Shown: positions 5,364 to 60,899, counted from the first letter of the stretch. The stretch is 64,000 nucleotides of DNA from Candidatus Omnitrophota bacterium (GCA_016206665.1 JACQRC010000100.1:33-64032); one strand, 5' to 3'. Program-made: numbers and translations. Notes: generated by a model from the sequence alone, not told the origin.

Positions 5364-5415
5364 AAAATGACGTTTAGCATCAACCGCACAAGCGCTTAGG
5401 AGAGGTTGCTGGCGT

Positions 5416-18419: not shown

Positions 18420-18432
18420 CGAGGAGCCGCTC

Positions 18433-19086: not shown

Positions 19087-19108
19087 GACGCACCGAACGG
19101 CACGTCGC

Positions 19109-45257: not shown

Positions 45258-46258
45258 GCGACCGCTTGGCGGTGGTGACGGGCGGCGCAGGCTTTATCGG
45301 CAGCCACATGGTGGACCTGCTCTTGGCCGAAGGCTACCGCGTGCATGTCATTGACAATCTCGCCAGCGGCCGCCGCGACAATCTCGCCCATCACGCGTCG
45401 CATCCGCGGCTGCGCGTGGAGGTGAAGGATCTGCGCGACGTCTCTGCAGAAGATGCGCTCTTCCGCGGGGCGGAGCACCTGTTCCATTTCGCCGGGCTGG
45501 GCGACATCGTGCCATCGATCAACCGGCCCATCGACTATCTCTCGACGAACGTGCTGGGCACCATTCACGCGCTCGAAGCGGCCAGGCTCGCGCGCGTGCG
45601 CAAGTTTGTGTACGCGGCCTCCTCCTCCTGTTACGGCCTGGCGACCGAGTTGCCGACGACAGAATCAGCTCCCATCAGCCCGCAGTACCCGTACGCGTTG
45701 AGCAAGTACGTCGCGGAAGAGGCCGTGCTGCACTGGGGCCGGGTCTACCGGCTGCCCGCCGTCTCCATCCGGATCTTCAATGCCTACGGCCCGCGGTCGC
45801 GCACGACCGGCGCCTACGGCGCCGTCTTCGGCGTCTTTCTGAAGCAGAAGCTCGCCGGCAAACCCTTCACGGTGGTTGGCGACGGGACCCAGCGACGCGA
45901 TTTCGTCTATGTGACGGATGTCACGCGAGCGTTTCTCTTGGCGGCCGAAGCCGAGCGCTCTGGCGCAGTGTACAACCTCGGCGGCGGCAACCCGCAGTCC
46001 GTGAACCGGCTCGTGGAGTTGCTGGGCGGGCCGGTCGTTTTCGTGCCGAAGCGGCCCGGCGAGCCGGATTGTACGTGGGCTGACATCACCAAGATCCGGC
46101 GGGAGTTGGGCTGGAGCCCGCGCGTGTCATTCGAGGAGGGTGTGGCGGCGATGCTGCAACAGATCGACTACTGGCGCGACGCGCCGCTCTGGGACCCCGC
46201 CTCCATTGAGGCGGCGACAAAGGACTGGTTCACCACGCTGGCCGGAGCGAACAGCTGA
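45254..46258 (+). CDS. NAD-dependent nucleotide-sugar epimerase/dehydratase (GalE-like SDR)
   Basis: 334 aa. ATGA overlap with the upstream gene. [30 protein letters not shown] (YxxxK). Confidence 0.75.
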   Translation: MSDRLAVVTGGAGFIGSHMVDLLLAEGYRVHVIDNLASGRRDNLAHHASHPRLRVEVKDLRDVSAEDALFRGAEHLFHFAGLGDIVPSINRPIDYLSTNVLGTIHALEAARLARVRKFVYAASSSCYGLATELPTTESAPISPQYPYALSKYVAEEAVLHWGRVYRLPAVSIRIFNAYGPRSRTTGAYGAVFGVFLKQKLAGKPFTVVGDGTQRRDFVYVTDVTRAFLLAAEAERSGAVYNLGGGNPQSVNRLVELLGGPVVFVPKRPGEPDCTWADITKIRRELGWSPRVSFEEGVAAMLQQIDYWRDAPLWDPASIEAATKDWFTTLAGANS

Positions 46259-47805
46259 TGCCGGAAACCACCGAGCACGACTACCGCCGGAAGATCAAGA
46301 CCCGCGAGGAGCTGCGCGCGCTCATCGGCGGGCGGCCGCGGCAGCGCTCCGTCATCATGTGCCACGGCGCCTTCGACCTGGTGCATCCCGGCCACATCCG
46401 CCATCTCATGTACGCCAAGAGCAAGGCCGAGATCCTCGTCGCAAGTCTTACCAGCGATGCCCACATTGCCAAGGCGAACTTCCGGCCCTTCGTGCCGCAG
46501 GAATTGCGGGCCATGAATCTGGCGGCGCTCGAGGTAGTCGACTACGTCATCATCGATGCCAGCCCCACGCCGATTGAGAATATCCGCTTCCTCCAGCCCG
46601 AGTACTTCGCGAAGGGGTATGAGTACCACAAAGACGGCCTGCACCCCAAGACGCGCGAAGAGCTCTCGGCCCTGGAGAGCTACGGAGGCGAGCTGCTCTT
46701 CACCCCGGGCGATGTGATCTACTCCTCCTCCGCCGTCATCGAGCACGCGCCGCCGAAATTAGCGGGGGAGAAGCTGGTGACGCTGATGGAATCCGAAGGC
46801 GTCACCTTTGAGGCGCTGCGCGCGGCCATCGAGGCCTGCCGGGGGATCCGCGTTCATGTGTTGGGCGATACCATCGTGGATTCCCACACCCACTGCTCGC
46901 TCTTGGGGGGGATTACCAAGACCCCCACCTTCAGTCTCAAGCATGACCGGCAGGTGAGCTTCGCCGGGGGGGCTGCGGTCGTCGCAAAGCACGTGCGCGA
47001 GGCGGGGGGCGAAGTGCGGCTCACGACGGTGTTAGGACAGGATGCGTGGCGCGACTTCGTGCTGCAGGATCTTTCCGCATCTGGGGTTGCCTGCGAGCCG
47101 GTCATCGACCACACCCGGCCCACCACGCACAAGAATGTCTTCATCACCGGCGGCTACCGGATGCTCAAGGTCGATACCGTGGACAACCATCCCATCTCCG
47201 AGAAAGTGTTGGAGCGGTTGACCGACTCGCTCAAGGCCCACCGGGCCGATGCCGTCATCTGCAGCGACTTCCGCCACGGCATCTTCGGTCCGGAGACGAT
47301 CCCGCCGCTCTTGGCGGCGCTGCCGGAGGGCGCGTTTCGGGCGGCCGACAGTCAGGTCGCGAGCCGCTGGGGCAACATTCTCGACTTTCAGGACTTCGAT
47401 CTCATTACGCCGAACGAGCGCGAGGTGCGCTTCGCCCTCGGCGACCAGGACTCGGTCGTGCGGCCGCTGGCCCTGGAGCTGTACCAGCGCGCCCGCTGCA
47501 AGACGCTGATCATGAAACTGGGCGACCGGGGCCTCATCACCTATCGCGCGCCCAGCCCGGATGTCCGCTCCTTTTTCACCATCGACAGCTTCGCCTCGAC
47601 GGTGGTCGATTCGGTGGGGGCGGGCGACGCGCTCTTGGCGTACGCAACGCTGGCCATGGCGGCAACCGGCTCCAACGTCATCGCCTCGATCCTCGGTTCG
47701 ATGGCGGCGGCCATCGCCTGCGAGCAGGAGGGCAACCAGCCGGTCAAGCCCGAGGCCGTCATCAAGAAGCTGTCGTCGATCGAGCAATCGATGGAGTTTG
47801 TCTGA
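46258..47805 (+). CDS. Bifunctional cytidylyltransferase-like nucleotidyltransferase (N-terminal) + PfkB/ribokinase-family sugar kinase (C-terminal); HldE-like but with reversed domain order
   Basis: 515 aa. CHGAFDLVHPGHIRHLMYAK (HxGH motif of the cytidylyltransferase superfamily) in the first ~150 aa. C-terminal GAGDALLAYATLAMAATG (PfkB signature 2). Confidence 0.7.
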   Translation: MPETTEHDYRRKIKTREELRALIGGRPRQRSVIMCHGAFDLVHPGHIRHLMYAKSKAEILVASLTSDAHIAKANFRPFVPQELRAMNLAALEVVDYVIIDASPTPIENIRFLQPEYFAKGYEYHKDGLHPKTREELSALESYGGELLFTPGDVIYSSSAVIEHAPPKLAGEKLVTLMESEGVTFEALRAAIEACRGIRVHVLGDTIVDSHTHCSLLGGITKTPTFSLKHDRQVSFAGGAAVVAKHVREAGGEVRLTTVLGQDAWRDFVLQDLSASGVACEPVIDHTRPTTHKNVFITGGYRMLKVDTVDNHPISEKVLERLTDSLKAHRADAVICSDFRHGIFGPETIPPLLAALPEGAFRAADSQVASRWGNILDFQDFDLITPNEREVRFALGDQDSVVRPLALELYQRARCKTLIMKLGDRGLITYRAPSPDVRSFFTIDSFASTVVDSVGAGDALLAYATLAMAATGSNVIASILGSMAAAIACEQEGNQPVKPEAVIKKLSSIEQSMEFV

Positions 47806-48728
47806 TGCGCATCGTGATCGTCGGGCTGGGCATCCAGGGACGCAAGCGCGCCGCCGTCGCCGGGTCGGAGGTGGTGGCTACGGTGGACCCCGCCGTACCG
47901 GAAGCGGCGTACCGCACCATCGAGCAGGTGCCGGTGTCGGACTACGATGCCGCCCTCGTCTGTGTGCCGGATGCGGCGAAACCCGCCCTCGTGCGGTATC
48001 TGCTGACCCAGCGCAAGCACGTCCTCGTGGAGAAGCCGCTGCTCGCGTCCGACGCGGAGCTGGCGGAATTCGAGACATTAGCGCGCGCCGGTCGCGTGGC
48101 CTGCTACACCGCCTACAATCATCGCTTCGAACCGCACCTGGTGCGGATGAAGGCGCTCCTCGACGCAGACACGCTGGGACCGATTTACCTCGTCCGCGGC
48201 TTCTACGGCAACGGCACGGCGCGCGATGTAAAGCTTTCGGCCTGGCGCGACCAGGGGCTGGGGGTGCTGCCGGATTTGGGTTCGCACCTGCTGGATTTGT
48301 TCCACTGGTACTGGGCTCCGGTGACGCGGACCTTCGAGCCGTGGAGCTGCAACCGCGAAGAGAATCGCGCCCCCGACCATATCCTCTTCGGCGCGTCCGG
48401 CCAACCGGCGGTCGTCCTTGAGGCGACCCTGCTGTCGTGGCGGAACACCTTTCAGTGGGATGTCATCGGCGAGCGCGGCAGCGCCCACGTGCAGGGATTG
48501 TGCAAGTGGGGTCCGAGCACCTTCACGCTGCGCACGCGGGTCCTGCCGAGCGGCCGTCCGGAGGAGCAGGTCGAGACCCTGACCCGGCCGGACCCGACCT
48601 GGGCGCTCGAGTATGATCATTTCAAGCAGCTGTGCCGCACCGGAGGCACGAATCTGGATAACGACCGATGGGTGAGCCGCATCTTCAGCGACCTGGAGCA
48701 GCCACTGACAGCTAAGGCCACAGTATGA
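47805..48728 (+). CDS. Gfo/Idh/MocA-family NAD(P)-dependent oxidoreductase (WbpB-like)
   Basis: ORF track starts at 47046. ATG 47805 overlaps the upstream stop (TGATG). MRIVIVGLGIQGRKR...VLVEKPL. Confidence 0.75.
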   Translation: MRIVIVGLGIQGRKRAAVAGSEVVATVDPAVPEAAYRTIEQVPVSDYDAALVCVPDAAKPALVRYLLTQRKHVLVEKPLLASDAELAEFETLARAGRVACYTAYNHRFEPHLVRMKALLDADTLGPIYLVRGFYGNGTARDVKLSAWRDQGLGVLPDLGSHLLDLFHWYWAPVTRTFEPWSCNREENRAPDHILFGASGQPAVVLEATLLSWRNTFQWDVIGERGSAHVQGLCKWGPSTFTLRTRVLPSGRPEEQVETLTRPDPTWALEYDHFKQLCRTGGTNLDNDRWVSRIFSDLEQPLTAKATV

Positions 48729-49978
48729 TTGGGATCGCGGGCTTATCACATCTGGGCATCGTGACCAGCGCGGCGACCGCGGCGCAGGGGTTCGACGTGG
48801 TCGCGTATGACGCGGATGCCGAGCGTTGCGCATCGCTGGCCCGGGGCCGGCTGCCTGTCGTCGAACCGGGCTTGGCGGAGTTGCTTGCCGCGCATCGCGC
48901 GCGGATCCGGTTCACGAACGAGGCTGCGGCACTGCGGGGCTGCGAGCTCATCATCTGCGCATCCGACGTGCCGACGGATGAGCAAGACCGCAGCGATCCG
49001 ACGGTCATTAACGATTTACTCGAGACGGTCGTCCACCACGCCGCACCGGGGAGCGCGCTGGTCGTGTTGAGCCAGGTGCCTCCGGGATTCACCCGCACGC
49101 TCGCGAACGGGGCCGCGTCGGCGCTGGCCGTCTTCTACCAGGTGGAAACCCTGATCTTCGGCGCCGCCGTGGAACGGGCCCTGCATCCGGAGAGGTTCAT
49201 CGTCGGCTGCGACGATCCGTCAGCGGCTCTGCCGGCGCCCTACGCCGCGTGGCTTTCGGCCTTCGGCTGTCCGGTGCTGCGGATGCGCTATGAAAGCGCG
49301 GAGTTATCGAAGATTGCGATCAACATGCTGTTGGCTTCCTCAGTGGCCACCGCCAAGACCTTGGCGGCACTCTGCGAGGATATCGGCGCAGACTGGTCGG
49401 AGATCGTGCCGGCGCTCACCTCGGACCGCCGGATCGGGCCCCATGCCTACGTGCGGCCCGGGCTGGGAATTGGCGGGGGCAACATCCCCCGGGACCTCGC
49501 TACCGTGCGCGCCCTGGCGGACCAGCATGGAACGCCTGATCGTGACTGGGTCTTGCGCACGTTGCATCGTGAAGTGCTGTCGCACCGGCCCGACCCGGTG
49601 ATTGCGCTCTGGGGGCTGGCCTATAAGCCAGGGACAAACTCGACCACACATTCACCGGCGATGGATCTGCTCGAGGTCCTCGGCTCGCCCACGGCCCAGA
49701 TTACCGTCCAGGTCTATGACCCGCAGGTCCGTTGCAATGGCCGGCACCCGCGACAGCTGCAGGCCGCCTCAGCGCTGGATGCCTGCCGTGGCGCCGACGC
49801 TTTGGCGATCATGACACCGTGGCCGGAATTCGCTGCCGTGAGTCTGGCGCAGGTACGTGAGATGCTGCGCGGCTCGGTCATCGTGGATCCTTACGGCGTC
49901 ACGAATGGACGGGAGTGCGAGGCGCTGGGTCTGCGTCACTTGCGATTGGGCGCTCCAACGCTGGCAGGAACGTGCTGA
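48725..49978 (+). CDS. UDP-glucose/GDP-mannose dehydrogenase-family nucleotide-sugar dehydrogenase (divergent)
   Basis: 417 aa. ATGA overlap with the upstream gene. MIGIAGLSHLGIVTSAATAAQGFDVVAYD...LPVVEPGLAELL. Central GLGIGGGNIPRD in place of the usual GFGGxCLPKD. Confidence 0.65.
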   Translation: MIGIAGLSHLGIVTSAATAAQGFDVVAYDADAERCASLARGRLPVVEPGLAELLAAHRARIRFTNEAAALRGCELIICASDVPTDEQDRSDPTVINDLLETVVHHAAPGSALVVLSQVPPGFTRTLANGAASALAVFYQVETLIFGAAVERALHPERFIVGCDDPSAALPAPYAAWLSAFGCPVLRMRYESAELSKIAINMLLASSVATAKTLAALCEDIGADWSEIVPALTSDRRIGPHAYVRPGLGIGGGNIPRDLATVRALADQHGTPDRDWVLRTLHREVLSHRPDPVIALWGLAYKPGTNSTTHSPAMDLLEVLGSPTAQITVQVYDPQVRCNGRHPRQLQAASALDACRGADALAIMTPWPEFAAVSLAQVREMLRGSVIVDPYGVTNGRECEALGLRHLRLGAPTLAGTC

Positions 49979-49980
49979 CG

Positions 49981-50898
49981 ATGGTCACGCACCGCTGGCA
50001 GACGCCGCAGAGACCCTCGCGCGTGGTCATTCTCGGCGGGTCAGGTTTCGTGGGACGCAGCGTAAAAGAACACCTTGAAAGCCAGGGCTTCAAGGTGGCC
50101 GCCGTCTCATCGTCAGACCTGGACTTATGTCAGCCCGGCGCTGTCGAGAAGCTCAGCGAGTTGATTCAGCCCGATGACGCGTTGGTCTTCGCCGCCGCCA
50201 TCACGCCGGACAAGGGCAAGGATTTTGAGACGTACCGTAAAAATTTGCTGATGGGGGAGCATGTCTGCCAGTTCTTTTTCAAGGGGGGCCGTTGCAGGCA
50301 GGTGATCTACATCAGCTCTGATGCCATGTATGGTGAGCGCGTTGAGAACCCTGTACGCGAATCCTCGCAGGGGCAATCCCCAAATTGGCATGGGCTGATG
50401 CATCGGCATCGAGAACAGTGGCTGCAGCAGATCGTGCCTCCTGCGGTCGTTCTGACCATGCTGCGTCCCTGCGCGCTCTATGGACCAGGCGACACACATA
50501 ATTCGTACGGGCCGAATCGTTTTCTTCAAAGTGCCGTCCATGAGCGCAAGATTACGCTATTCGGTGAAGGCGAGGAGCTGCGGGACCATGTCTATATCGG
50601 CGACCTGTGCCGGCTGATTGAGCTCTCCTTGCTTCATCGCAGTGACGGCAAACTCAATGTGGCCACGGGCCATGCCGTTTCGTTTGCCGATGTGGCAAAG
50701 CGAGCGGCAGCGCTGTGCCCGGAGCCGGTACGGATCGATCCATCCCCACGGCACACACCGGTGACCCACCGTCACTTCGACATCACGGAGCTGGTCCGGG
50801 CCTTTCCGACCTTCCGCATGACGCCATTAGAGGAAGGTCTGGCGGTCACGTACCGCGCGCTCCTATGCCGCGAGCCAGCCACAGCGGTGAAGACATGA
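49981..50898 (+). CDS. NAD-dependent epimerase/dehydratase-family protein (SDR)
   Basis: ORF track starts at 49915. ATG 49981 lies just after the upstream stop. VVILGGSGFVGRSV. Confidence 0.65.
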   Translation: MVTHRWQTPQRPSRVVILGGSGFVGRSVKEHLESQGFKVAAVSSSDLDLCQPGAVEKLSELIQPDDALVFAAAITPDKGKDFETYRKNLLMGEHVCQFFFKGGRCRQVIYISSDAMYGERVENPVRESSQGQSPNWHGLMHRHREQWLQQIVPPAVVLTMLRPCALYGPGDTHNSYGPNRFLQSAVHERKITLFGEGEELRDHVYIGDLCRLIELSLLHRSDGKLNVATGHAVSFADVAKRAAALCPEPVRIDPSPRHTPVTHRHFDITELVRAFPTFRMTPLEEGLAVTYRALLCREPATAVKT

Positions 50899-52076
50899 GC
50901 CCCAAGCCCCTGTCCGGCGCACCGGCGTCTACCGGAGTGCCGGCGTCCTTGACGACGTTCTGGGATGCAGCGCCCGCAGTCAAGGTTCCCTATACGGCGC
51001 TGGGACAACAGGCCGCGGCGCTCAAGCAGGACCTGCTGGCGGCCTGCCAGTCGATACTGGAGAGCGGCCAGTACGTGATGGGGCCGGAGCTCGCCGCCTT
51101 CGAGCGAGAATTTGCGGAGTACTGCGGCACACGATTTGCCGTCGGCGTGGCCAACGGCACCGACGCGCTCATCCTCGTGCTGCGCCGCCTGGCATTGCAG
51201 GCCGGCGATGAGGTCATCACCGCGCCCAACTCCTTCATCGCCTCGGCCTCATCGATTGCGCTCGCCGGCGGCCGGCCGGTCTTTGCCGATATCGGCGTAG
51301 ATTTGAACCTGGATCCCGCGCAGGTCGAGGCGGCCATCACGCCGAGGACGAAGGCGATCGTGCCTGTGCACTTGACCGGGCGGCCGGCGCGGATGGATGA
51401 GATCCTGGCCATCGCGAAGCGGTACCGGCTCTATGTGCTGGAGGACGCGGCGCAGGCGGTGGGGGCAAAGCTGCACGATCGGCGGGCAGGCAGTTGGGGC
51501 GATGCGGCGTGCTTTAGCCTGCATCCGCTCAAGAATTTGCATGCCTTTGGCGACGGCGGTGTTGTCACCACCAATGATGAGCCGCTCTATCGCTGGCTGC
51601 TGCAGGCGCGCAACCACGGGCTGAAAAATCGGGACGAGTGCGCCTTCTGGAGCGTCAATTCCCGGCTCGATGAGATCCAGGCGGCGATGCTGCGCGTCCA
51701 ACTGCGCCATCTGGATCAGTGGACGGCCGAGCGGCGTCGTCTGGCTGCCCGCTACGCTGTCCTGCTCAAGCCGCATGTGGAGGTGCCGGAGGAACGACCC
51801 GGGGAGCACCACGTCTTTCAGACCTACATGATTCAGGCCGACCGACGCGATGCGCTCCTGCGCCATCTCAATGACCACGATATCGAGGCGCGCGTGCATT
51901 ATCCCGTGCCCCTGCACCGCCAGCCGGTCACACGCGACTTGGGGTATGGCACTGATGCGCTACCAATCGCGACGCGGGCAGCGGGACGCATTCTGAGCCT
52001 TCCGCTGTATCCGGGCCTCACCGAGGCGCAACAGCAGCGTGTGGCGCAGTTGATTGCGGAATTCTACCGGCGATGA
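50895..52076 (+). CDS. DegT/DnrJ/EryC1/StrS-family sugar aminotransferase
   Basis: ORF track starts at 50715. ATG 50895 overlaps the upstream stop (ATGA). GQYVMGPELAAFEREFAEYCG. GTDALILVL. FSLHPLKNLHAFGDGG (Lys). Confidence 0.85.
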   Translation: MSPKPLSGAPASTGVPASLTTFWDAAPAVKVPYTALGQQAAALKQDLLAACQSILESGQYVMGPELAAFEREFAEYCGTRFAVGVANGTDALILVLRRLALQAGDEVITAPNSFIASASSIALAGGRPVFADIGVDLNLDPAQVEAAITPRTKAIVPVHLTGRPARMDEILAIAKRYRLYVLEDAAQAVGAKLHDRRAGSWGDAACFSLHPLKNLHAFGDGGVVTTNDEPLYRWLLQARNHGLKNRDECAFWSVNSRLDEIQAAMLRVQLRHLDQWTAERRRLAARYAVLLKPHVEVPEERPGEHHVFQTYMIQADRRDALLRHLNDHDIEARVHYPVPLHRQPVTRDLGYGTDALPIATRAAGRILSLPLYPGLTEAQQQRVAQLIAEFYRR

Positions 52077-53224
52077 GAGTGCCCTACGCGTACCTCGACC
52101 AGCAATTTGCCGATGCGGAGGCCTACTTCAAAGACCTGCGCCGGCTCGTCGCCAGCGGCGAGTTCACGCTCGGGCCCTTTGTGGAAGAGTTCGAGCATAA
52201 GTTCGCCGCGTATCTCGGTGTCAAGCATGCCATCGGCACCAACACCGGCACCGACGCGCTGATGCTGGCACTCAAGGCGGTGGGCGTGCAGCCGGACGAT
52301 GAGGTGATCACCGTCCCCAACACCTTTATCGCCACCGTGGGCGCCGTCATCGCGGCAGGCGCGCGGCCGGTCTTTGTCGATAGCGATGACCGGTACCAGA
52401 TCGACGTGACGAAGATCGCCGCGGCGATCACGCCGCGCACCCGCGCCATCGTGCCGGTCCATTGGGGCGGCTGCCCGGCGGACATCGAAGCGGTGCTGGC
52501 CATCGCCAACGAGCGCGGCCTCGCCGTCGTCGAAGACGCCTGCCCGGCCGTGGGCGCGCGGGTGCGCGGGCGCAGCGTCGGCACCTTTGGGCGGGTGAAT
52601 GCCTTCAGCTTGCATCCGCTCAAGCCGCTCAATGTCTGGGGTGACGGTGGCGTGGCGGTGACCGACGACGATAAAGCGGCCGCCTGGCTGCGGCTCTACC
52701 GTAACCACGGGCTGCGCGACCGGGACCACGTCGAGCTCTGGGGCGTCAACACCCGGCTGCAGCCGGTGCAGGCGGTGGTGGCCAGCCGCCTCATGGGCCA
52801 GATTCCGGAGATTGTCGCCACGCGCATCAGAAACGCCCACCGGCTCGACGCGGGTCTGGCCGATCTGGCCGGTTCGGTGCGCGTGCCGCGCCGCCCCGAG
52901 GGCTACCGTGAGGTGTATCAGCTCTATCTCATCAGCGTGGAGCGCCGGGATGCGCTGCTCGCCTTCCTGACGAAGCAGGGCATCGAGGCGAAGGTGCACT
53001 ATCCTGTGCCGCTGCATCTGCAGGAGGCCGCCGCCACCCTCGGCTACCGGCGCGGCGATTTTCCGGTCTGCGAGCGGCAGGCGGACGAGGTCCTGACCCT
53101 ACCGGCGCACCAGCACCTCACGGCCCGGCAGATCGACTACATCATTGAGGCCATCCACGCTTTCTACCGGCGGCCGGTGCACACGCGCCGGCCGGCTTCC
53201 GCCGGCGCAGGGATGGCGTCATGA
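52073..53224 (+). CDS. DegT/DnrJ/EryC1/StrS-family sugar aminotransferase
   Basis: 383 aa. ATGA overlap with the upstream gene. GEFTLGPFVEEFEHKFAAYLG. GTDALMLAL. FSLHPLKPLNVWGDGG (Lys). Confidence 0.85.
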   Translation: MRVPYAYLDQQFADAEAYFKDLRRLVASGEFTLGPFVEEFEHKFAAYLGVKHAIGTNTGTDALMLALKAVGVQPDDEVITVPNTFIATVGAVIAAGARPVFVDSDDRYQIDVTKIAAAITPRTRAIVPVHWGGCPADIEAVLAIANERGLAVVEDACPAVGARVRGRSVGTFGRVNAFSLHPLKPLNVWGDGGVAVTDDDKAAAWLRLYRNHGLRDRDHVELWGVNTRLQPVQAVVASRLMGQIPEIVATRIRNAHRLDAGLADLAGSVRVPRRPEGYREVYQLYLISVERRDALLAFLTKQGIEAKVHYPVPLHLQEAAATLGYRRGDFPVCERQADEVLTLPAHQHLTARQIDYIIEAIHAFYRRPVHTRRPASAGAGMAS

Positions 53225-54180
53225 GCCACGAAGGCGCGTTGTCCGCTGAGGTGCGACGACGGCTGTATTATCGGCTGCGCCTGCTGCGGCAGGTGGAGGA
53301 ACGGATTGTTGCGGACTACCATCATAAAGAGATGCGTTCGCCGCCGCACCTCTACATCGGCCACGAGGCCGTGGCCGTCGGGGTCTGTACGGCCCTGCGA
53401 GCCGATGATCTGGTATTTCCGTATTATCGTTCCCACGGATGGTACCTGGCGAAGGGTGGGGAGCTGAAGGCACTCATGGCAGAACTCTTTGGCCGCGAGA
53501 CGGGATGTAGTAAAGGATGGGGCGGGTCGATGCACGTGATCGACCTCAAGGCCGGTGTCATGGGCACCTCCGCCATCGTCGGGGGGACGATCTCCCATGC
53601 CCTCGGAGCGGCGCTCGCCCTCCGGATGCAAGGCAAGACCTCCGTCGTCGCCGTCAGCTTCGGCGATGGCGCCACGGAAGAGGGCGTGTTTCACGAGGCG
53701 CTGAACTTTGCTACCTTGCGTCGGCTGCCCATCTTATTTGTCTGCGAGAATAATCTCTACTCGACCAACACCCATATCCGAGATCGACAGGCACAGCTCG
53801 ATATTTATCGCCGCGCGGAAGGGTATGGGTTACCCGGCCATCTCGTTGATGGTAATGACGTCGTGGCGGTGTATGGCGAGGCGGCCCAGGCGATTGCGCG
53901 AGCCCGGAGCGGTGGCGGGCCGACGTTGCTGGAATGCCGCACCTACCGTGTGCTGGAGCACTGCGGCGTTAACGCAGACGACGACCTCGGCTATCGAACA
54001 GCCAATGAGGTCGCGCAGTGGCGGGCGAGGGATCCATTAACACAGGCTCGGCATCTCGTCGCGGGGAACGAGGCAGAGCGCATCGTCGAGGAGATTCGTG
54101 TCAGCGTTGACGAGGCCTTCGCCGACGCCCGGTCTTCGCCATTTCCCGCCTCGCTGGTTCCTGAGGGGGCGCGGCCATGA
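53221..54180 (+). CDS. Thiamine-diphosphate-dependent dehydrogenase E1 component, alpha subunit-like
   Basis: 319 aa. ATGA overlap with the upstream gene. YRLRLLRQVEERI...YIGHEAVAVG...YRSHG. ThDP motif GDGATEEGVFHEALNFATLRRLPILFVCENN. Confidence 0.8.
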   Translation: MSHEGALSAEVRRRLYYRLRLLRQVEERIVADYHHKEMRSPPHLYIGHEAVAVGVCTALRADDLVFPYYRSHGWYLAKGGELKALMAELFGRETGCSKGWGGSMHVIDLKAGVMGTSAIVGGTISHALGAALALRMQGKTSVVAVSFGDGATEEGVFHEALNFATLRRLPILFVCENNLYSTNTHIRDRQAQLDIYRRAEGYGLPGHLVDGNDVVAVYGEAAQAIARARSGGGPTLLECRTYRVLEHCGVNADDDLGYRTANEVAQWRARDPLTQARHLVAGNEAERIVEEIRVSVDEAFADARSSPFPASLVPEGARP

Positions 54181-55202
54181 AATTCCGTGAAGCGATTCGC
54201 GCGGCCACGCTGCAGGCCATGGAGCTCGACCCCGCCGTCTTTCTGATCGGTGTCGGAATTACCGACCCGCGGGCGGTGTGGGGCACGCTCTCCGGCGCGT
54301 TGCAGCAGTTCGGCCCTGGGCGGGTCATCGAGGGTCCGCTGGCCGAGGAGGCGCTGACCGGCATCTGCGTCGGTGCCGCCACCATGGGCCTGCGGCCGCT
54401 GCTCATCCATCACCGCGTGGACTTCGTCATGCTCTCGATGAATCAACTGGTCAACCACGCCGCCAAATGGCGGCAGATGTTTGGCATGCAGCAGACGGTG
54501 CCGATGGTCGTGCGCGCAGTGGTCGGGCGCGGCTGGGGTAACGGACCGCAGCACACGCAAAGCCATCACGCCCTCTTCGCTCATATTCCCGGCCTGAAGG
54601 TGCTCGTGCCTGCCAACCCGTACGACGCCAAGGGGCTGCTCCTCGCGGCATTGCGTGACGAGGATCCGGTCATCTACATTGAGCACCGCTGGCTCCACGA
54701 AGACGACGCGCCGGTGCCCGAGGCGTACTATCTGACCCCCATCGGCAAGGCCGCCGTCGTGCGTCCGGGCACCGATGTGACGATCGTCGCAGTTGGGCCG
54801 ATGGTCCCAGAGTCCTTGAAGGCGGCTGCGGCACTCGAGCCGACGGGTCTCTCCGCTGAAGTGATTGATGTGAGGACCCTACGGCCCTTGGATCTCGAGG
54901 CGGTGCTGCAGTCGGTGACGAAAACCGGGCGACTGGTCGTGGCCGATTCCGACTGGGGACCGTGCGGGATCGCAGGGGAGATCATCGCGCGCGTGGCTGA
55001 AGCGGCGCACGACGCGCTCAAAGCCAGGCCGGTCCGGATCACCTGGCCGGACAGCGCAGTGCCCAGCAGCCAGGCGATTGAGGCCCGGTTCTATCCCGGG
55101 GCGGCCGAGATCCAAGCGGCGATTCTGCAGACGGTCGCCCGGCAGCGTGACACCGAGCTGCTGGCGCCCAGCACGGTCAAGAAGTTCGACGGTCCGTTCT
55201 AA
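54177..55202 (+). CDS. Thiamine-diphosphate-dependent dehydrogenase E1 component, beta subunit-like (transketolase-like Pyr + C-terminal domains)
   Basis: 341 aa. ATGA overlap with the upstream gene. FREAIRAATLQAMELDPAVFLIGVG...VIEGPLAEEALTGICVGAA...EVIDVRTLRPLD. Confidence 0.8.
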   Translation: MKFREAIRAATLQAMELDPAVFLIGVGITDPRAVWGTLSGALQQFGPGRVIEGPLAEEALTGICVGAATMGLRPLLIHHRVDFVMLSMNQLVNHAAKWRQMFGMQQTVPMVVRAVVGRGWGNGPQHTQSHHALFAHIPGLKVLVPANPYDAKGLLLAALRDEDPVIYIEHRWLHEDDAPVPEAYYLTPIGKAAVVRPGTDVTIVAVGPMVPESLKAAAALEPTGLSAEVIDVRTLRPLDLEAVLQSVTKTGRLVVADSDWGPCGIAGEIIARVAEAAHDALKARPVRITWPDSAVPSSQAIEARFYPGAAEIQAAILQTVARQRDTELLAPSTVKKFDGPF

Positions 55203-55220
55203 GGAGACGCGGTTCCAGCG

Positions 55221-55934
55221 ATGCCCATGCTGCGCGAGCTGACTCACCGGGCGTCCGCGCGACGCCGGTCCCGCTACGTGGATTTCGTCAGCGCGGTCCA
55301 CACGCGCACCCGGCGCGACTACCTGCGGGAACGGGTAATCGGCGTGGACAAGGCCGCCTGCGCGACCATTGCCAAGCAGTTCGGCCGGGATTACTGGGAC
55401 GGTGAGCGCCAGTACGGCTACGGAGGCTACACCTATGACGGCCGCTGGCGTCCGGTCGCCGAGCAGATGGCTGCGTATTACCGGCTCAAGCCCGGCGACC
55501 GGATCCTCGATGTGGGCTGCGGCAAGGGATATCTGCTCTACGAGTTCACCCAGGTGCTGCCGGGGGCGCGCGTCGCGGGCCTGGATATCTCGGCCTACGC
55601 GATCGCGCACGCCAAGCCGGAGATCAAGCCGTTCCTGCGGCGGGGCCAGGCGGTCAAGCTGCCATATCCGGACCGCAGCTTCGACTTGGTCATGTCGATC
55701 AACGTGCTGCACAACCTCCACAACTATGAGTTGCGGCGCGCGCTGCAGGAGGTCGAACGGGTGGGCAAACGCCACACATGCGTCGTGGTGGATTCCTACC
55801 GGAATGAGCGGGAGAAAGTGAACCTGCTGTACTGGCAGTTGACCTGTGAGACATTCTACACGCCCAAGGAGTGGGAGTGGTTCTTCAAAGAGAGCGGCTA
55901 CACGGGCGATTACGGATTTGTCTTCTATGAATAG
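55221..55934 (+). CDS. Class I SAM-dependent methyltransferase
   Basis: 237 aa. DRILDVGCGKGYLL...LPYPDRSFDLVMSINVLHNL. Confidence 0.75.
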   Translation: MPMLRELTHRASARRRSRYVDFVSAVHTRTRRDYLRERVIGVDKAACATIAKQFGRDYWDGERQYGYGGYTYDGRWRPVAEQMAAYYRLKPGDRILDVGCGKGYLLYEFTQVLPGARVAGLDISAYAIAHAKPEIKPFLRRGQAVKLPYPDRSFDLVMSINVLHNLHNYELRRALQEVERVGKRHTCVVVDSYRNEREKVNLLYWQLTCETFYTPKEWEWFFKESGYTGDYGFVFYE

Positions 55935-55958
55935 CCTGCAGCGCGCGCGGAGACGACC

Positions 55959-56852
55959 ATGCACGTTGTGGTGACCGGAGCCGGCGGATTCATCGGGTCG
56001 CACCTGGTCCAGGCCCTGGCTGGTGAGGGTCATGAGGTGACGGCCGTGTACCGGCGGAGCCGGCCCGAATCCTGGCAGACCTTGCGGGCTGTGCGCTGGG
56101 TGCAGGCGGACCTGGCCCACGGTGCGGCGGAACTGCCCGCCGCGGAGGCCGTGGTGCACGCGGCGGCCCTGCACTACCAGTCGCAGCCGCGGCCGACGCC
56201 GGCGGACCTCGTGAGAGCCAACGTCCTGTCGACACTCCACCTCGCGGAATGGGCCAGGCGCTGTGCCGTGCGCTGCTTTATTCATCTGTCGACGGTGACG
56301 GTACACGGCACCGTGCAGGAGCCGCTCCTGACGGAGACCACCCCAGTGGTCGAGCCGGACCTGTACGGGGCGACGAAGTTTGCCGGGGAGCGGATATTAC
56401 AGGCCTACGGAGAGGCCTTTCCGGTGACCGTCTTGCGGCTGCCGGGGGTGGTGGGGTCCGGCACCGATGGACCGTGGCTCGGCCGCGTCCTGCGGCTGGC
56501 CCTGGCGCACGAGCCGATTGCCATCTACAACGGCGAGGTGTGGTTCAACAACGTGACCGATGTCACAGAGCTGGAGCACTTGGTGCTGCGGCTGTTGGAA
56601 CGTCCGCCGTCGGGTTACCGGGCCTTGCCGGTGGGAGCGGCCGAGCCGATGCGGTTGCGTGAGGTCGTCGAGTTGGTGGTGTCGGCGACCCGCTCACGTT
56701 CTGCCATCGTGGAAGCGCCAACGACCCGACGGTCATTTACCATTGATATCGATCCGCTGGTGTGCGCGACGGAATTTCAACCCTCCACGACCCGGGCGCT
56801 GGTCGAGCGGTACGTGAGGTCCAACTTGGGGCTTGCGGCACATGTGGCGTAA
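55959..56852 (+). CDS. NAD-dependent epimerase/dehydratase-family protein (SDR)
   Basis: 297 aa. MHVVVTGAGGFIGSHL. YGATKFAGE (YxxxK). Confidence 0.7.
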   Translation: MHVVVTGAGGFIGSHLVQALAGEGHEVTAVYRRSRPESWQTLRAVRWVQADLAHGAAELPAAEAVVHAAALHYQSQPRPTPADLVRANVLSTLHLAEWARRCAVRCFIHLSTVTVHGTVQEPLLTETTPVVEPDLYGATKFAGERILQAYGEAFPVTVLRLPGVVGSGTDGPWLGRVLRLALAHEPIAIYNGEVWFNNVTDVTELEHLVLRLLERPPSGYRALPVGAAEPMRLREVVELVVSATRSRSAIVEAPTTRRSFTIDIDPLVCATEFQPSTTRALVERYVRSNLGLAAHVA

Positions 56853-58017
56853 GCTGCGCACGGTGCTGGAGTCGGTGGTGGCCCTGGTGCCCCTGATGAT
56901 CGTGCGGGCGCTGCGGCCGCTCATGCTCATCCGCTTCGGACCGCTGCGCAGCGAACGGCTCGGCCATTTCGCGGCGAACACCGAACTGTATCTCTGCGAA
57001 CGGGAGGCGGGCCTGCATGGCCGGCGAACCTTGGACATCTTTTATCACACGCCGCCCATCTGCAATCGGCAGTTGGCGCGCATGTGGGAACGACGGCTGC
57101 GCGTCTGGAAGGCTGCGCGGTGGCTGGACCGGCTCAATCGGCGGCTGCCGGGCGGAGGCGCACACGTCATCCCGATGCCATCCGACATAGACATCCGGGG
57201 ACTGTTGCCGAAGATGCCGGCGCATCTGACATTTACACCGGAGGAGGAGGACCAGGCCCGCAAGGGGTTGCGCGCACTGAGCATTCCGGAGGGCGTACCG
57301 CTCGTGTGTCTCCACTCGCGTGATGCCGCCTACCTCGCGCAGGCCCTGCCGGGGAGCGACTGGGGGTATCACGACTTCAGGAATTCGTCCATCGCCAACT
57401 TTGTCCCTGCGGCCGAGGAGCTGGCGCGACGCGGCTACGTGGTCGTCCGCACCGGGGCCGCGGTGGAGCAGCCGATACCCTCGAATCATGCGCGGATTGT
57501 GGACTATGCCGTCTGCGGCCGGACGGCGCTGCTGGATGTCTATCTGGCCGCAGCGTGCCGGTTTTACCTGGGGGACACCTGCGGCTTCGATGCGCTGCCG
57601 CGCGTCTTCCGGAAGCCGCTGGCGGTCGTGAACGTGGTTCAACTGAGCAGCGCGCGGACTGAACAGGCGATCATCATTCTAAAGCAGTTCTGGTCGCGCG
57701 AGCTGCACCGGGCGCTGACCCTCGAGGAGATCTTCGCATCGCGCGCGGCCTGGTATGCGCGCCGCGAGCAGTTCGCGCAGGCCGGCATCGAGCTGATCGA
57801 GAATTCCGGCGAGGAGATCGCCGCCCTCGCCATCGAGATGGACGAGCGGCTGAACGGCACGTGGCAGGCGACGGCAGAGGATGCGCAGCTGCAGGCACGA
57901 TTTCAGGCGATCTTCGCGCCGCACATGACGGACGGCCTGCAGGCGCCGCGGCTCGGCGCGGCCTTTCTGCGGCAGCACCAGGCGTTGTTAGGCGACAGGG
58001 TGGCATGCGCATCATGA
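56842..58017 (+). CDS. Uncharacterised protein; possibly a glycosyltransferase-like family seen in sugar-modification loci
   Basis: ORF track starts at TTG 56833, with ATG at 56842. N-terminal LIRFGPLRSERLGHFAANTELYLCERE resembles, from memory only, proteins annotated as a TIGR04372-type putative glycosyltransferase. No catalytic motif verified. Confidence 0.35.
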   Translation: MWRKLRTVLESVVALVPLMIVRALRPLMLIRFGPLRSERLGHFAANTELYLCEREAGLHGRRTLDIFYHTPPICNRQLARMWERRLRVWKAARWLDRLNRRLPGGGAHVIPMPSDIDIRGLLPKMPAHLTFTPEEEDQARKGLRALSIPEGVPLVCLHSRDAAYLAQALPGSDWGYHDFRNSSIANFVPAAEELARRGYVVVRTGAAVEQPIPSNHARIVDYAVCGRTALLDVYLAAACRFYLGDTCGFDALPRVFRKPLAVVNVVQLSSARTEQAIIILKQFWSRELHRALTLEEIFASRAAWYARREQFAQAGIELIENSGEEIAALAIEMDERLNGTWQATAEDAQLQARFQAIFAPHMTDGLQAPRLGAAFLRQHQALLGDRVACAS

Positions 58018-59837: not shown

Positions 59838-60893
59838 GTGAACCGCTACACGTTCCTGGACGGCAAGAGCGTGCTGATCACCGGTGGCACGGGCTCCTTT
59901 GGCCAGAAGTTCACGGAGCTGCTGCTGCATGAGAGCCGGGTCAAGACGTTGCGCATCTACTCGCGCGACGAGCTCAAGCAGCACGAGATGAACCGGCGGC
60001 TCACCGATGAGCGGCTCCGTTTCCTCATCGGGGATGTCCGGGACAAGGAGCGGCTGAGCCGGGCCATGCGCGGCGTGGATTACGTCATCCATGCGGCGGC
60101 GCTCAAGCAGGTGCCGACCTGCGAGTACAACCCTTTCGAAGCCGTCAAGACCAACATCCTCGGCGCGGAGAACCTCATTGACGTGGCCATCGACTGCGGG
60201 GTGTCGCGGGTGATGGCCTTAAGCTCTGACAAGGCGGTCAACCCGGTCAACCTCTACGGGGCGACCAAACTCTGCGCGGAAAAGCTCTTCGTGCAGGGCA
60301 ACGCCTACGTTGGCTCCGGCGGCACGCGCTTCAGCTGCGCGCGCTACGGCAATGTCGTCGGCTCGCGAGGGAGCGTCATCCCCACCTTTTTGCACCAGCG
60401 GACGACCGGCACGGTGACGGTCACCGACCAGCGGATGACGCGATTCTGGATCACGCTGGAGGAGGGGGCTCGTTTCGTGCTCCGGTGCCTGGAGACGATG
60501 CACGGCGGCGAGATCTTCGTGCCCAAGATTCCGCGCATGAGCATCATGGATTTGGTGCAGGCCGTGGCCCCCGCGTGCGAGGTCAAGGTCACCGGTATCC
60601 GTCCGGGTGAAAAGCTGCACGAGCTCTTGATCTCGACGGATGAGGGGCGGCACACCCTCGAATTCGAAGACCACTTCGTCATCCAGCCGCTCCATCCGTG
60701 GTGGAAAGTGGAGAACTGGTCGGACGGGGTGCCCTTGGCGGACGGCTTCACATATGCCAGCAATACCTTTCCGGACCAGCTCAGCGTCGATGCGCTGCGG
60801 ACGATGGTGGCGGAGCAGGAGATCGAGCTGGAGCAGCGCGGCGGCGGGCCTGCCGCCGGCGTTGAGCGTGAGTCGGTGGAAGAGGAGGCGTAA
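59838..60893 (+). CDS. pseB: UDP-N-acetylglucosamine 4,6-dehydratase (inverting), PseB/FlaA1-like
   Basis: 351 aa. GTG start after AAGGAGGGG. SVLITGGTGSFGQKF...RIYSRDELKQHEM...FLIGDVRDKERL...HAAALKQVPTCEYNPFEAVKTNILGAENL...LSSDKAVNPVNLYGATKLCAEK. Confidence 0.8.
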   Translation: MNRYTFLDGKSVLITGGTGSFGQKFTELLLHESRVKTLRIYSRDELKQHEMNRRLTDERLRFLIGDVRDKERLSRAMRGVDYVIHAAALKQVPTCEYNPFEAVKTNILGAENLIDVAIDCGVSRVMALSSDKAVNPVNLYGATKLCAEKLFVQGNAYVGSGGTRFSCARYGNVVGSRGSVIPTFLHQRTTGTVTVTDQRMTRFWITLEEGARFVLRCLETMHGGEIFVPKIPRMSIMDLVQAVAPACEVKVTGIRPGEKLHELLISTDEGRHTLEFEDHFVIQPLHPWWKVENWSDGVPLADGFTYASNTFPDQLSVDALRTMVAEQEIELEQRGGGPAAGVERESVEEEA

Positions 60894-60899
60894 GGTTTC

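Follow-up and report, generated by a model that had tools for sequence, protein, structure and literature searches.

What might a pyruvate dehydrogenase-type E1 alpha/beta pair be doing in a sugar operon with neither of its usual partner subunits beside it? The question is raised by a 64,000-nucleotide stretch of DNA from a Candidatus Omnitrophota bacterium (hereafter, the window), in which a first, sequence-only reading had found such a pair among sugar aminotransferase genes and had proposed that, on the pattern of AviB1/B2, it may load a two-carbon unit from pyruvate onto a keto nucleotide sugar.

Anatomy of the E1 pair

Both genes of the pair are intact and, like all the genes described here, lie on the plus strand. 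E1 alpha (53221-54180; 319 aa), a ThDP-binding subunit of the E2-independent lineage described below, matched PF00676 (E1_dh, 3.4e-72), and E1 beta (54177-55202; 341 aa) matched PF02779 (9.6e-28) and PF02780 (1.8e-33), with E-values far beyond chance in both cases. The domain set of a 2-oxoacid dehydrogenase E1 (E1_dh with GDG...NN, and a Transket_pyr/Transketolase_C beta subunit) is complete. The ThDP/Mg binding motif of E1 alpha, GDG-X26-NN, is intact at residues 148-178 (53662-53754; read from the sequence as GDGATEEGVFHEALNFATLRRLPILFVCENN), catalytic H247 is kept, and E1 beta, when aligned to PDB 1w85_B, retains catalytic E57 and H126, corresponding to E59 and H128 of the G. stearothermophilus enzyme. 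The translational coupling that had been reported could also be read directly, as one ATGA (53221-53224) combines the stop codon of the preceding DegT gene with the start codon of E1 alpha, and a second (54177-54180) combines the E1 alpha stop with the E1 beta start.

The best-scoring named models for the pair were PDH E1 alpha and PDH E1 beta, and its top PDB matches were PDH and BCKDH E1, as expected of a conventional E1 (from a pyruvate, acetoin, or branched-chain 2-oxoacid dehydrogenase) whose E2 and E3 genes lie elsewhere in the genome. However, neither subunit reached the cut-off of the curated NCBIfam equivalog models of the PDH E1 subunits: E1 alpha scored 293.6 bits against TIGR03182 (PDH E1 alpha; cut-off 393.85), E1 beta scored 275.7 bits against PRK09212/NF006667 (cut-off 321), and the scores for TIGR03181 (230.7 bits; cut-off 411.35) and NF008854 (278.2 bits; cut-off 454) were likewise too low. 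Within the 64 kb, a Pfam scan of about 60 large ORFs returned no match to 2-oxoacid_dh, Biotin_lipoyl, or Pyr_redox_dim, and tblastn searches with genuine E2 and E3 proteins of related loci as queries found nothing at E<=1e-3, in agreement with the first impression that E2 and E3 are missing from the window.

Two other ThDP architectures were considered and rejected. A YerE-type single chain (TPP_enzyme_N, M, C) does not fit the split E1 architecture, in which TPP_enzyme_C gave only a weak match (28.2 bits) inside the E1_dh domain. A split transketolase was rejected on the Transketolase_N (PF00456) score of the first subunit, which fell below threshold (21.9 bits vs a cut-off of 22), while E1_dh scored 243 bits; DXP_synthase_N also matched E1 alpha weakly.

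Two lineages of E1 pairs

We then compared the pair with 88 related E1 loci. An E2 gene adjoins the E1 pair in 34 of these, none of which has sugar genes, and every locus with sugar genes, as well as the window, was without E2 (Fisher p = 7e-20). In a neighbor-joining tree of the concatenated alpha and beta subunits, the E2-linked and sugar-linked groups split at 100/100 bootstrap, and the window pair fell outside the clade of all 34 E2-linked pairs (100/100). The window pair is a member of an E2-free lineage separate from the complex-type E1. AcoA/AcoB (acetoin dehydrogenase E1, Ao:DCPIP oxidoreductase) and the PDH and BCKDH E1 share its fold, its ThDP motif, and its catalytic Glu and His, but in the loci examined these pairs always adjoin E2, and sometimes E3, and their E1 beta has no C-terminal tail of the kind described below; an acetoin operon (L033) is among the nearest E2-linked relatives.

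The E2-free group that contains the window pair also takes in three Streptomyces deoxysugar loci (L062, L070, and L076). These were assigned by gene content alone, on which basis L070 and L076 were taken as Plm8/9-like; L076 is considered paulomycin-like because it contains a chorismate enzyme, an EryCIII-type glycosyltransferase, a dTDP-sugar 3,5-epimerase, EF-G, and an MFS transporter, and L062 carries an NDP-hexose 2,3-dehydratase. The window pair is 44-47% identical to the Streptomyces pairs, which is no higher than its identity to acetoin- or PDH-type E1 (42-48%). Closer homologues (60-75% identity) in L001, L003, L085, and L086 directly follow two consecutive DegT genes, as in the window, and L086 is a bare four-gene unit of DegT-DegT and the E1 pair. 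A related cluster (L088) contains an L-2-hydroxyglutarate oxidase gene, and a fusion of NUDIX to E1 alpha (P0105) points to a nucleotide-linked substrate. In public annotation, PGAP gives such homologues on plasmids the name "transketolase C-terminal domain-containing protein" and uses "alpha-ketoacid dehydrogenase subunit beta" for most other matches.

Lineage markers and the E1 beta tail

The lineage markers used here were derived in this analysis rather than taken from a published definition. In the window they are P41, R189, E246, G249, and D253 of E1 alpha, and H78, R80, R118, W120, G121, and R171 of E1 beta. E2-linked pairs mostly have F, A, and K at the sites of the lineage's R80, R118, and R171, respectively, and mostly N at the site of its E1 alpha E153. 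The three Streptomyces loci have E1 beta markers identical to those of the window, except for Y in place of the final F in L062, and match it at most E1 alpha markers, with L070 and L076 differing at 153, 190, and 246.

E1 beta also carries a C-terminal extension of about 20-21 aa (55140-55199) ending in FDGPF (55185-55199). An F-x-G-P-F/Y extension is common to most members of the E2-free lineage, and a GP[FY] end was found in the window and 36 related loci but in no E2-linked E1 beta; the median tail was 27.5 aa in sugar-linked vs 2 aa in E2-linked loci. Among the 34 tail-bearing loci, 31 have a nucleotide-sugar setting and none has an adjoining E2. One tail-bearing pair (L089) has no visible sugar genes around it and adjoins genes for an ACP and a condensation-domain protein, and the markers therefore indicate E2 independence, not sugar use as such. 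In G. stearothermophilus E1, the conserved C-terminus of E1 beta presumably forms the site for the E2 subunit-binding domain, and the window E1 beta runs 21 aa past the conserved end of the E2-linked type. This extension, the 100/100 separation from all 34 E2-linked pairs, the sub-cut-off PDH scores, the coupling of the genes inside a sugar operon, and the recurrence of the same E2-free arrangement in dozens of loci together make an ordinary dehydrogenase E1 extremely improbable.

A coupled operon for a probable heptose- or octose-type sugar

The E1 pair sits in an operon of about 15 translationally coupled genes, which combines heptose- or octose-type activation, a Cj1427-like oxidase, a GFO/UGDH pair, and two aminotransferases, and parts of which recur across many phyla. 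Its upstream part includes a GmhB-like HAD-IIIA phosphatase (42959-43525, with an uncertain start at 42842 or 42959; Pfam HAD; PRK08942 at 6.3e-39, below cut-off) and a small transaldolase of the TAL/FSA family (43513-44262; TIGR02134 at 328.1 bits, above its cut-off of 281.95), which is also present in the cassettes of L001, L012, L015, L023, and L085. These are followed by a GalE/RmlB-like epimerase or dehydratase (SDR_b, 45254-46258), which reaches up to 75% identity in related loci of other phyla, and by an HldE-like bifunctional protein (46258-47805) with an N-terminal nucleotidyltransferase (PF01467) and a C-terminal PfkB kinase (PF00294), an order that we take to be the reverse of that in E. 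coli HldE; both TIGR02198 and TIGR02199 scored below cut-off. An Fcl/RmlD/HldD-like SDR gene (SDR_c, 49981-50898) lies further downstream.

The keto group of the acceptor could come from either of two genes. The first is SDR_a (44259-45257), a candidate NDP-heptose C4-dehydrogenase whose best PDB match was 6vo6 (1.6e-38, 136 bits), presumably C. jejuni Cj1427. Cj1427 is a GDP-heptose C4-dehydrogenase that yields a 4-keto-heptose without deoxygenation (PMC10680097), and a product of this type would be a suitable acceptor for the E1 pair, although the nucleotide carrier in the window is likely different (HldE-type). In 27 of the 34 tail-bearing loci, an SDR gene is found no more than 10 kb from the E1 pair. 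The second is a GFO/IDH/MocA oxidoreductase (GFO1, 47805-48728; PF01408 and PF22725), which follows the HldE-like gene across a TGATG junction and presumably has a WbpB- or LmbZ-like role. It precedes a UGDH-family nucleotide-sugar dehydrogenase (48725-49978) supported by Pfam and by TIGR03026 (199.9 bits, above its cut-off of 189.8). LmbP belongs to the lincosamide GDP-octose pathway. Its fellow enzymes LmbR, N, K, O, M, L, Z, and S are of the types found in the window cassette, with a transaldolase, kinase, phosphatase, nucleotidyltransferase, SDR epimerase, UGDH-like dehydrogenase, GFO-like oxidoreductase, and DegT aminotransferase common to both (PMC12945683). A SIS isomerase, too, was seen in L001 and elsewhere in the window. 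Lincosamide biosynthesis is, however, without an E1 pair, and the parallel is one of enzyme families only. The probable acceptor is a nucleotide sugar derived from a heptose or octose and not a 6-deoxyhexose.

Two DegT genes stand upstream of the pair. DegT 1 (50895-52076, with the start chosen at an ATGA junction) matched PF01041 at 4.1e-110 in a run that used the longer ORF 50715-52076, and its PDB matches were 7b0d, QdtB, 3uwc, DesV, and WbpE. DegT 2 (52073-53224), the gene coupled to E1 alpha, matched PF01041 at 9.4e-106 and had 3uwc as its top PDB match (7e-117), followed by 7b0d (scyllo-inositol transaminase) and the 3-aminotransferases DesV, QdtB, and WbpE. The methyltransferase and SDR described as the next genes were also recovered: a class I SAM methyltransferase (55221-55934; Methyltransf_11/25/31) has a GGAG ribosome-binding site and begins 18 nt downstream of E1 beta, and its homologues (43-68% identity) occur within 10 kb of E1 in 14 of 34 tail-bearing but 0 of 34 E2-linked loci. 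SDR_d (55959-56852; PF01370 at 6.3e-36) is an extended SDR with uninformative PDB matches and a candidate ketoreductase for the branch or the ring, and a TIGR04372-family glycosyltransferase (56842-58017; 201.7 bits vs a cut-off of 45) follows it. Genes that could make the acceptor (SDR_a and GFO1) and genes that could tailor the product (both DegT genes, the methyltransferase, and SDR_d) thus share the operon of the E1 pair.

This gene content bears on two other explanations. In one, the hydroxyethyl unit would be added to the terminal aldehyde of an NDP-heptose or NDP-octose at which the UGDH-like dehydrogenase stops, giving a product two carbons longer that ends in CH(OH)-CO-CH3 and that DegT could convert to an amino-dideoxy nonose or decose. 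Such chain extension would account for a UGDH-family enzyme and two aminotransferases in one coupled operon and for DegT-DegT-E1 being the tightest module, and both ketones and aldehydes can serve as acceptors for E1-fold carboligases, as with Ao:DCPIP oxidoreductase (PMC12247030). We regard it as unlikely, though, as every member for which genetic or biochemical data exist attacks a ring ketone, at C3 or C4 (PMC12247030), UGDH/GFO genes occur with the pair in just 7 of the 34 tail-bearing loci compared to 27 for SDR, and no precedent was found. In the other, the pair would be an accessory 2-oxoacid decarboxylase that clears the 2-oxo acid which the two aminotransferases, or ping-pong dehydrogenases, release as a co-product, or that supplies an acyl group for N-acylation of an amino sugar; the tight coupling to two DegT genes agrees with this, as does the fact that no N-acyltransferase was visible among the profile matches of the operon genes. 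Yet hydroxyethyl-ThDP can pass on an acyl group only with the help of an oxidant such as lipoamide, and none is present; 18 of the 34 tail-bearing loci have no DegT neighbor; and the substrates of the Streptomyces members are non-amino deoxysugars (PMC4802897), all of which leaves an accessory role very unlikely. Nothing supports the "unusually acylated" sugar that the sequence-only reading had offered as an alternative to a branched one.

Known C2-branching relatives and a proposed mechanism

The "alpha-KADH2" E1-fold C2-branching enzymes AviB1/AviB2 (avilamycin), Pau11/Pau12 = Plm8/Plm9 (paulomycin), AlmDI/DII (aldgamycin), and KbDH-alpha/beta (kibdelomycin) are, like the window pair, split E1 alpha/beta proteins that act without E2/E3 in a nucleotide-sugar pathway. 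The lineage markers and F-x-G-P-F/Y tail are common to the window and the Streptomyces paulomycin-like and deoxysugar loci. AviB1/B2, Plm8/9, and KbDH-alpha/beta use pyruvate to put an acetyl branch on keto sugars, with Plm8/9 placing a pyruvate-derived C2 chain on paulomycose (PMC4802897, PMC4753412). KbDH-alpha/beta couples pyruvate to ketones in vitro (PMC12247030), which makes the precedent stronger than the sequence-only reading had put it. The resulting branch ketones are reduced, methylated, or transaminated, fates that match the reductase, methyltransferase, and aminotransferase genes adjoining the window pair (PMC12247030). The known pairs come from actinomycete antibiotic clusters and act on dTDP-deoxyhexoses, whereas the window pair belongs to an Omnitrophota operon that has heptose- or octose-type activation genes and presumably serves a cell-envelope glycan. 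Against an E1 pair in this role, branched LPS sugars have been credited to YerE-type enzymes, not E1 pairs (PMC4753412, PMC12247030). YerE/YerF (yersiniose) and ErwE (erwiniose) share the surface-polysaccharide setting and the same proposed chemistry, in which a ThDP acyl anion meets a keto nucleotide sugar before ketoreduction (PMC9306805, PMC4753412), but YerE is a single-chain flavoprotein of the decarboxylase/acetolactate-synthase superfamily without the E1 alpha/beta fold, so the likeness is one of analogy, not homology.

Because published relatives form acetyl branches on keto sugars with pyruvate as the donor, the sugar-branching reading is supported, and the tree, markers, tail, sugar-locus context, and sub-cut-off PDH scores all favor it. 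From sequence, we therefore judge it reasonably probable that the window pair is a stand-alone carboligase, which would join a C2 unit of pyruvate to a nucleotide-activated keto sugar from the same operon. A different ThDP chemistry, namely transketolase-like dihydroxyethyl transfer from hydroxypyruvate or a ketose phosphate, or acetoin-dehydrogenase-like C2 cleavage from a methyl-ketone side chain, appears quite unlikely. The weak Transketolase_N and DXP_synthase_N matches, the acetoin operon among the nearest E2-linked relatives, the transaldolase in the operon, and the split transketolases proposed for hydroxyacetyl branching in miharamycin (PMC12247030) speak for it; against it, the transketolase match is below cut-off, pyruvate is the only donor of characterised lineage members (PMC12247030), and C2 cleavage needs an electron or aldehyde acceptor, of which none is evident in the operon.

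For the sugar-branching reading, we infer the acceptor sugar, donor, position of attack, order of steps, and choice of branching over chain extension as follows. The HldE-like enzyme, together with the GmhB-like phosphatase, would activate the acceptor, probably of heptose or octose type and possibly made from an octulose phosphate that the transaldolase supplies; oxidation at C4 (SDR_a) or C3 (GFO1) would then provide its keto group. The pair, as a ThDP enzyme with the E1 (alpha-keto acid dehydrogenase 2) fold and an alpha2beta2-type assembly, acting without E2/E3, would most likely decarboxylate pyruvate to hydroxyethyl-ThDP and add this C2 unit to the sugar carbonyl, which would yield a tertiary alcohol bearing a C-acetyl branch. 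The two neighboring DegT enzymes may transaminate the branch ketone, to a 1-aminoethyl group like that in the amycolose of kibdelomycin, and/or provide a ring amine. Reduction by SDR_d and methylation would also tailor the acetyl branch and ring, and the finished sugar would reach a cell-envelope glycan through the TIGR04372 glycosyltransferase.

Possible implications for envelope glycans

What is new here is the context, a coupled operon of about 15 genes around the E1 pair with parts recurring across many phyla. A bolder and rather doubtful proposal is that the pair provides the key C-C bond-forming step of an undescribed, widespread pathway, and that the F-x-G-P-F tail and new arginines of E1 beta repurpose the lipoyl/E2 interface for a nucleotide sugar. 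If true, the cassette of this pathway would comprise the transaldolase, reversed-order HldE, GmhB-like phosphatase, Cj1427-like oxidase, GFO/UGDH, two DegT, E1 pair, and methyltransferase; its product would be a C2-branched or C2-extended amino heptose or octose of 9 to 10 carbons, made without a NeuB-type synthase; and it would serve the envelopes of many mostly uncultured phyla.

A complete E1 pair within a nucleotide-sugar operon

In this contig of a Candidatus Omnitrophota MAG, E1 alpha (53221–54180) is an intact ORF of 319 aa with a PF00676 match (3.4e-72) in the Pfam scan, and E1 beta (54177–55202) is an intact ORF of 341 aa matching PF02779 and PF02780. The sequence-only reading had described a ThDP motif in the alpha subunit and ATGA coupling of both subunits to the preceding DegT gene and to each other; the motif was recovered as GDG-X26-NN at residues 148–178, and the ATGA overlap was read at both junctions. 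The catalytic residues E57 and H126 of E1 beta are retained (aligned to E59 and H128 of the G. stearothermophilus E1 beta structure), and the active-site histidine of E1 alpha, H247, is invariant. Judged by its residues, the pair is complete and catalytically competent. As that reading also held, a SAM methyltransferase (55221–55934) and an SDR (SDR_d, 55959–56852) lie downstream. Two DegT aminotransferases (DegT1, 50895–52076; DegT2, 52073–53224) lie upstream. Neither E2 nor E3 was detected in the window by Pfam (~60 large ORFs) or by tblastn queries with authentic E2 and E3 sequences.

Inspection of start codons places the pair in a single translationally coupled operon of about 15 genes, running from ~42.9 kb to ~58.0 kb (42959–58017), with ATGA, GTGA or TGATG junctions at 44259, 45254, 46258, 47805, 48725, 50895, 52073, 53221, and 54177. 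In order, its genes encode a GmhB-like phosphatase, a small transaldolase (TIGR02134 above cut-off), two SDRs (SDR_a, 44259–45257; SDR_b, 45254–46258), an HldE-like nucleotidyltransferase-kinase (46258–47805), a GFO/IDH/MocA oxidoreductase (47805–48728), a UGDH-family dehydrogenase (TIGR03026 above cut-off), a third SDR (SDR_c, 49981–50898), DegT1, DegT2, E1 alpha, E1 beta, the methyltransferase, SDR_d, and a TIGR04372 glycosyltransferase. These families parallel those of the lincosamide GDP-octose pathway as tabulated in a review (transaldolase, kinase, phosphatase, NTase, SDR, UGDH-like, GFO-like, and DegT), and several of the genes are 60–75% identical to counterparts in loci from other phyla. 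From its gene content, we judge that this is probably a conserved, uncharacterised operon for a heptose- or octose-type amino sugar.

Comparison with the PDB gave 6vo6, which we take to be the GDP-heptose C4-dehydrogenase Cj1427, as the top match of SDR_a; for the methyltransferase and SDR_d it gave nothing informative. DegT1 and DegT2 are both similar to 3-aminotransferases (e.g., QdtB, DesV, and WbpE), and the top match of DegT2 was 3uwc, presumably a Coxiella protein, on which a literature search found nothing. The possibility that one of the DegT paralogues is a PMP-dependent 3-dehydrase of the E1/ColD type was also weighed and rejected, because aminotransferases give both proteins much better scores than RfbH, ColD, or the E1 dehydrase do.

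E1 pairs fall into E2-linked and E2-free lineages

More than 100 metagenomic proteins are 60–75% identical to the window E1 alpha, and on long contigs of these close homologues the pair again directly follows a DegT-DegT pair. In three loci (L001, L003, and L085) this unit is embedded in much of the window's cassette, and in another (L086) the bare DegT-DegT-E1 alpha-E1 beta unit is surrounded by transposases. A scan of genome contigs with E1 alpha yielded 80 further loci at 41–54% identity; none of them is a close relative in culture that carries the whole cassette. Every locus was scored for homologues of the window genes and for E2 and E3, using Pfam-confirmed queries from an acetoin operon (L033) and a second locus (L043). 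In 34 loci E2 adjoins the E1 pair and sugar genes are absent, and in all loci with sugar genes E2 is absent by the same scoring, a clean dichotomy.

In neighbor-joining trees of 78–85 sequences, all E2-linked E1 alpha sequences form a single clade, the sugar-linked ones, including the window's, fall outside it, and the split has 100/100 bootstrap support with concatenated alpha and beta subunits. In E1 alpha, P41, R189, E246, and D253 are near-invariant in the E2-free lineage and absent from E2-linked pairs, G249 is a one-residue insertion marking the lineage, and E153 is replaced by N in E2-linked pairs. The E1 beta markers are H78, R80 (F in E2-linked pairs), R118, W120, G121, and R171 (K in E2-linked pairs), of which R118, W120, and G121 lie 5–8 residues N-terminal of the catalytic H126.

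Most E2-free members, including the window, Streptomyces, and Azospirillum pairs, also carry a 20–34 aa C-terminal extension of E1 beta. Carriers of the pair that can be cultivated include Azospirillum thermophilum CFH 70021 (L087) and Colwellia sp. RE-S-Sl-9 (L053). In the window this tail (55140–55199) ends in FDGPF; the ending F-x-G-P-F/Y is invariant in the window, L001, L003, L005, L012, L053, L062, L070, L076, L085–L087, and L089, occurs in none of the 34 E2-linked E1 beta sequences, and is not described in the literature we found on such enzymes. In the G. stearothermophilus E1-PSBD structures, E2 binds at a site made up of the C-termini of E1 beta, and an extension there would be consistent with life without E2. 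Among non-redundant tail-bearing loci, 31/34 have sugar genes within 10 kb of the E1 pair, namely an SDR (27/34), an HldE-like gene (19/34), a DegT (16/34), or a methyltransferase (14/34); homologues of all four are absent from the E2-linked loci by the same scoring.

That the pair is instead a housekeeping pyruvate or acetoin dehydrogenase E1 is very unlikely, the least probable of the readings we considered: it scores under the curated cut-offs, is phylogenetically separate from E2-linked pairs, bears the tail, is translationally coupled within a sugar operon, and recurs in the same arrangement without E2 in dozens of loci.

Two loci show the fold in other settings. On a Streptomyces griseofuscus plasmid (pSGRIFU1; L089, 10980–16510), a pair that has every marker of the lineage and a tail ending in GPY lies alongside a condensation-domain protein, an ACP, and type II PKS genes, and no sugar genes are visible. 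Because this pair adjoins a condensation-domain protein and an ACP, we read the markers as a sign of E2 independence and not of sugar use as such, and the lineage may also supply C2 units to non-sugar pathways. Separately, an Atrimonadaceae chromosome (L075, 9989–12010) encodes a single-chain fused E1 alpha-beta protein of 673 aa next to a mannitol dehydrogenase, a Zn-ADH, a xylose-isomerase-like TIM barrel, and an MFS transporter, with no E2 within 10 kb. Here too the fold may work independently of E2, in the catabolism of sugar alcohols.

Relation to known C2-branching enzymes

In antibiotic clusters, E1 alpha/beta pairs are known to equip keto sugars with a C2 branch that comes from pyruvate (PMC4753412, PMC4802897, PMC12247030). 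Genetic evidence supports this for AviB1/B2; Pau11/12 (= Plm8/9) are such a pair (PMC4753412, PMC4802897), further cases are the enzymes of aldgamycin and kosinostatin, and KbDH-alpha/beta of the kibdelomycin pathway join pyruvate in vitro to ketones, sugar analogues among them (PMC12247030). C3 or C4 receives the acetyl branch, which is later reduced, methylated, oxidised, or transaminated (PMC12247030). According to the reviewed literature, ThDP carboligases forming tertiary alcohols are without an experimentally solved structure. Three Streptomyces loci fall in our E2-free group: L070 and L076, which encode a chorismate-utilising enzyme, an EryCIII-type glycosyltransferase, the E1 pair, a dTDP-sugar 3,5-epimerase, EF-G, and an MFS exporter, look like paulomycin clusters by gene content (cf. 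the Plm gene list, PMC4802897), and L062 encodes an NDP-hexose 2,3-dehydratase, a GFO reductase, and a glycosyltransferase.

In Gram-negative LPS, in contrast, branched sugars have been assigned to YerE-type enzymes, which differ in fold from the E1 pair (PMC4753412, PMC9306805, PMC12247030), and a search for O-antigen clusters combined with PDH E1 found nothing specific. The kind of enzyme is already known and the setting is new in emphasis; the window pair is therefore best described as a known kind outside its usual setting. Coxiella burnetii CBU_0686 as well as CBU_0692 and CBU_0693 are horizontally acquired "pyruvate dehydrogenases" that have been read as fatty-acid metabolism genes (PMC5423948). 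Their gene numbers put them close to CBU_0678–0683, which are LPS genes, and their products may be carboligases of the same kind; of two further Coxiella papers, one lacks the relevant enzyme terms (PMC5843353) and the other both these and the gene numbers (PMC3539893).

A proposed route to a C2-branched sugar

The E1 pair belongs to an E2-free lineage and lies within an operon of nucleotide-sugar enzymes, and both observations support the earlier proposal that it transfers a C2 unit from pyruvate to a keto nucleotide sugar. In the route we propose, the HldE-like enzyme and the phosphatase would build an NDP-heptose, or the transaldolase would supply an octulose phosphate, like LmbR in lincosamide biosynthesis (PMC12945683), leading to an NDP-octose. 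SDR_a, as a putative counterpart of Cj1427 (PMC10680097), or the GFO oxidoreductase would create a ketone, to whose carbonyl the E1 pair would add hydroxyethyl-ThDP derived from pyruvate. One DegT would then aminate the ring and the other possibly the branch ketone, and SDR_d and the methyltransferase would complete the sugar.

Several relatives bear on the form of the substrate. NUDIX hydrolase genes stand beside the E1 pair in L003 (6410–6853), L087 (9484–10074), and L088 (11375–11854), and one metagenomic protein (P0105), 65% identical to the window E1 alpha, is a natural NUDIX-E1 alpha fusion, which together suggest that the substrate is nucleotide-linked or that nucleotides are swapped at some step. 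L088, the Solidesulfovibrio magneticus RS-1 plasmid pDMC1, also has an L-2-hydroxyglutarate oxidase gene (23325–24527) in its E1-pair glycan cluster, which would recycle 2-hydroxyglutarate from Cj1427-/WbpB-type dehydrogenases regenerating NAD+ with 2-oxoglutarate. Because of the fusion, the NUDIX genes, and this oxidase gene, we favor a nucleotide-linked route of the Cj1427/WbpB type. A DXS-like condensation at the sugar-phosphate stage was rejected, since the resulting 1-deoxyketose could not be isomerised and activated, and since the NUDIX-E1 alpha fusion exists.

Extension of the chain by C2 at a terminal aldehyde, in place of ring branching, is the most interesting alternative, albeit an unlikely one. 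Transketolase-like or lyase chemistry, for which there is little support, seems more doubtful still, and a role as accessory decarboxylase or acyl donor, similarly with little in its favor, is highly improbable.

Other glycan features of the window

Around the operon predicted to make the branched sugar, a second, separate heptose-type set (17700–21963) comprises an NTP_transferase, a SIS isomerase, a 688-aa carbamoyltransferase, and a GHMP kinase, and so suggests that the same glycan contains a heptose bearing a carbamoyl group. A single 1155-aa ORF (32114–35581) combines Polysacc_synt (Wzx-like flippase), GT2 glycosyltransferase, and SAM methyltransferase regions. Three very large ORFs (10–8751; 840, 854, and 1111 aa), whose sole Pfam match is one SdrD_B-like domain, may encode surface proteins carrying the glycan. 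Downstream of the operon, an ABC exporter is followed by PseB and PseC (59838–62114), both above equivalog cut-offs; no PseF, PseG, PseH, or PseI is visible between these and the window end (64000), and the pseudaminic-acid pathway may continue past the contig, or PseB and PseC may feed another sugar.

Implications

When E1-like pairs lie outside a 2-oxoacid dehydrogenase complex, annotation routinely calls them pyruvate or acetoin dehydrogenase and assigns them to central metabolism. The two kinds can be told apart simply, by the lack of an adjacent E2, the marker residues, and the F-x-G-P-F/Y tail of E1 beta. Among the plasmid hits (H1–H25), putatively E2-free homologues are named "transketolase C-terminal domain-containing protein" by the NCBI pipeline and most other hits "alpha-ketoacid dehydrogenase subunit beta", and the annotation name may itself be a cue separating the lineages. 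Overall, our comparisons indicate that this putative carboligase kind extends beyond actinomycete antibiotic clusters and appears to be common at loci for cell-envelope glycans in Omnitrophota, Acidobacteria, Verrucomicrobia, Cyanobacteria, Alphaproteobacteria, and other groups, and point to new candidate ThDP carboligases making tertiary alcohols. C2-branched or C2-extended higher sugars are therefore predicted in many surface glycans of unsolved structure.
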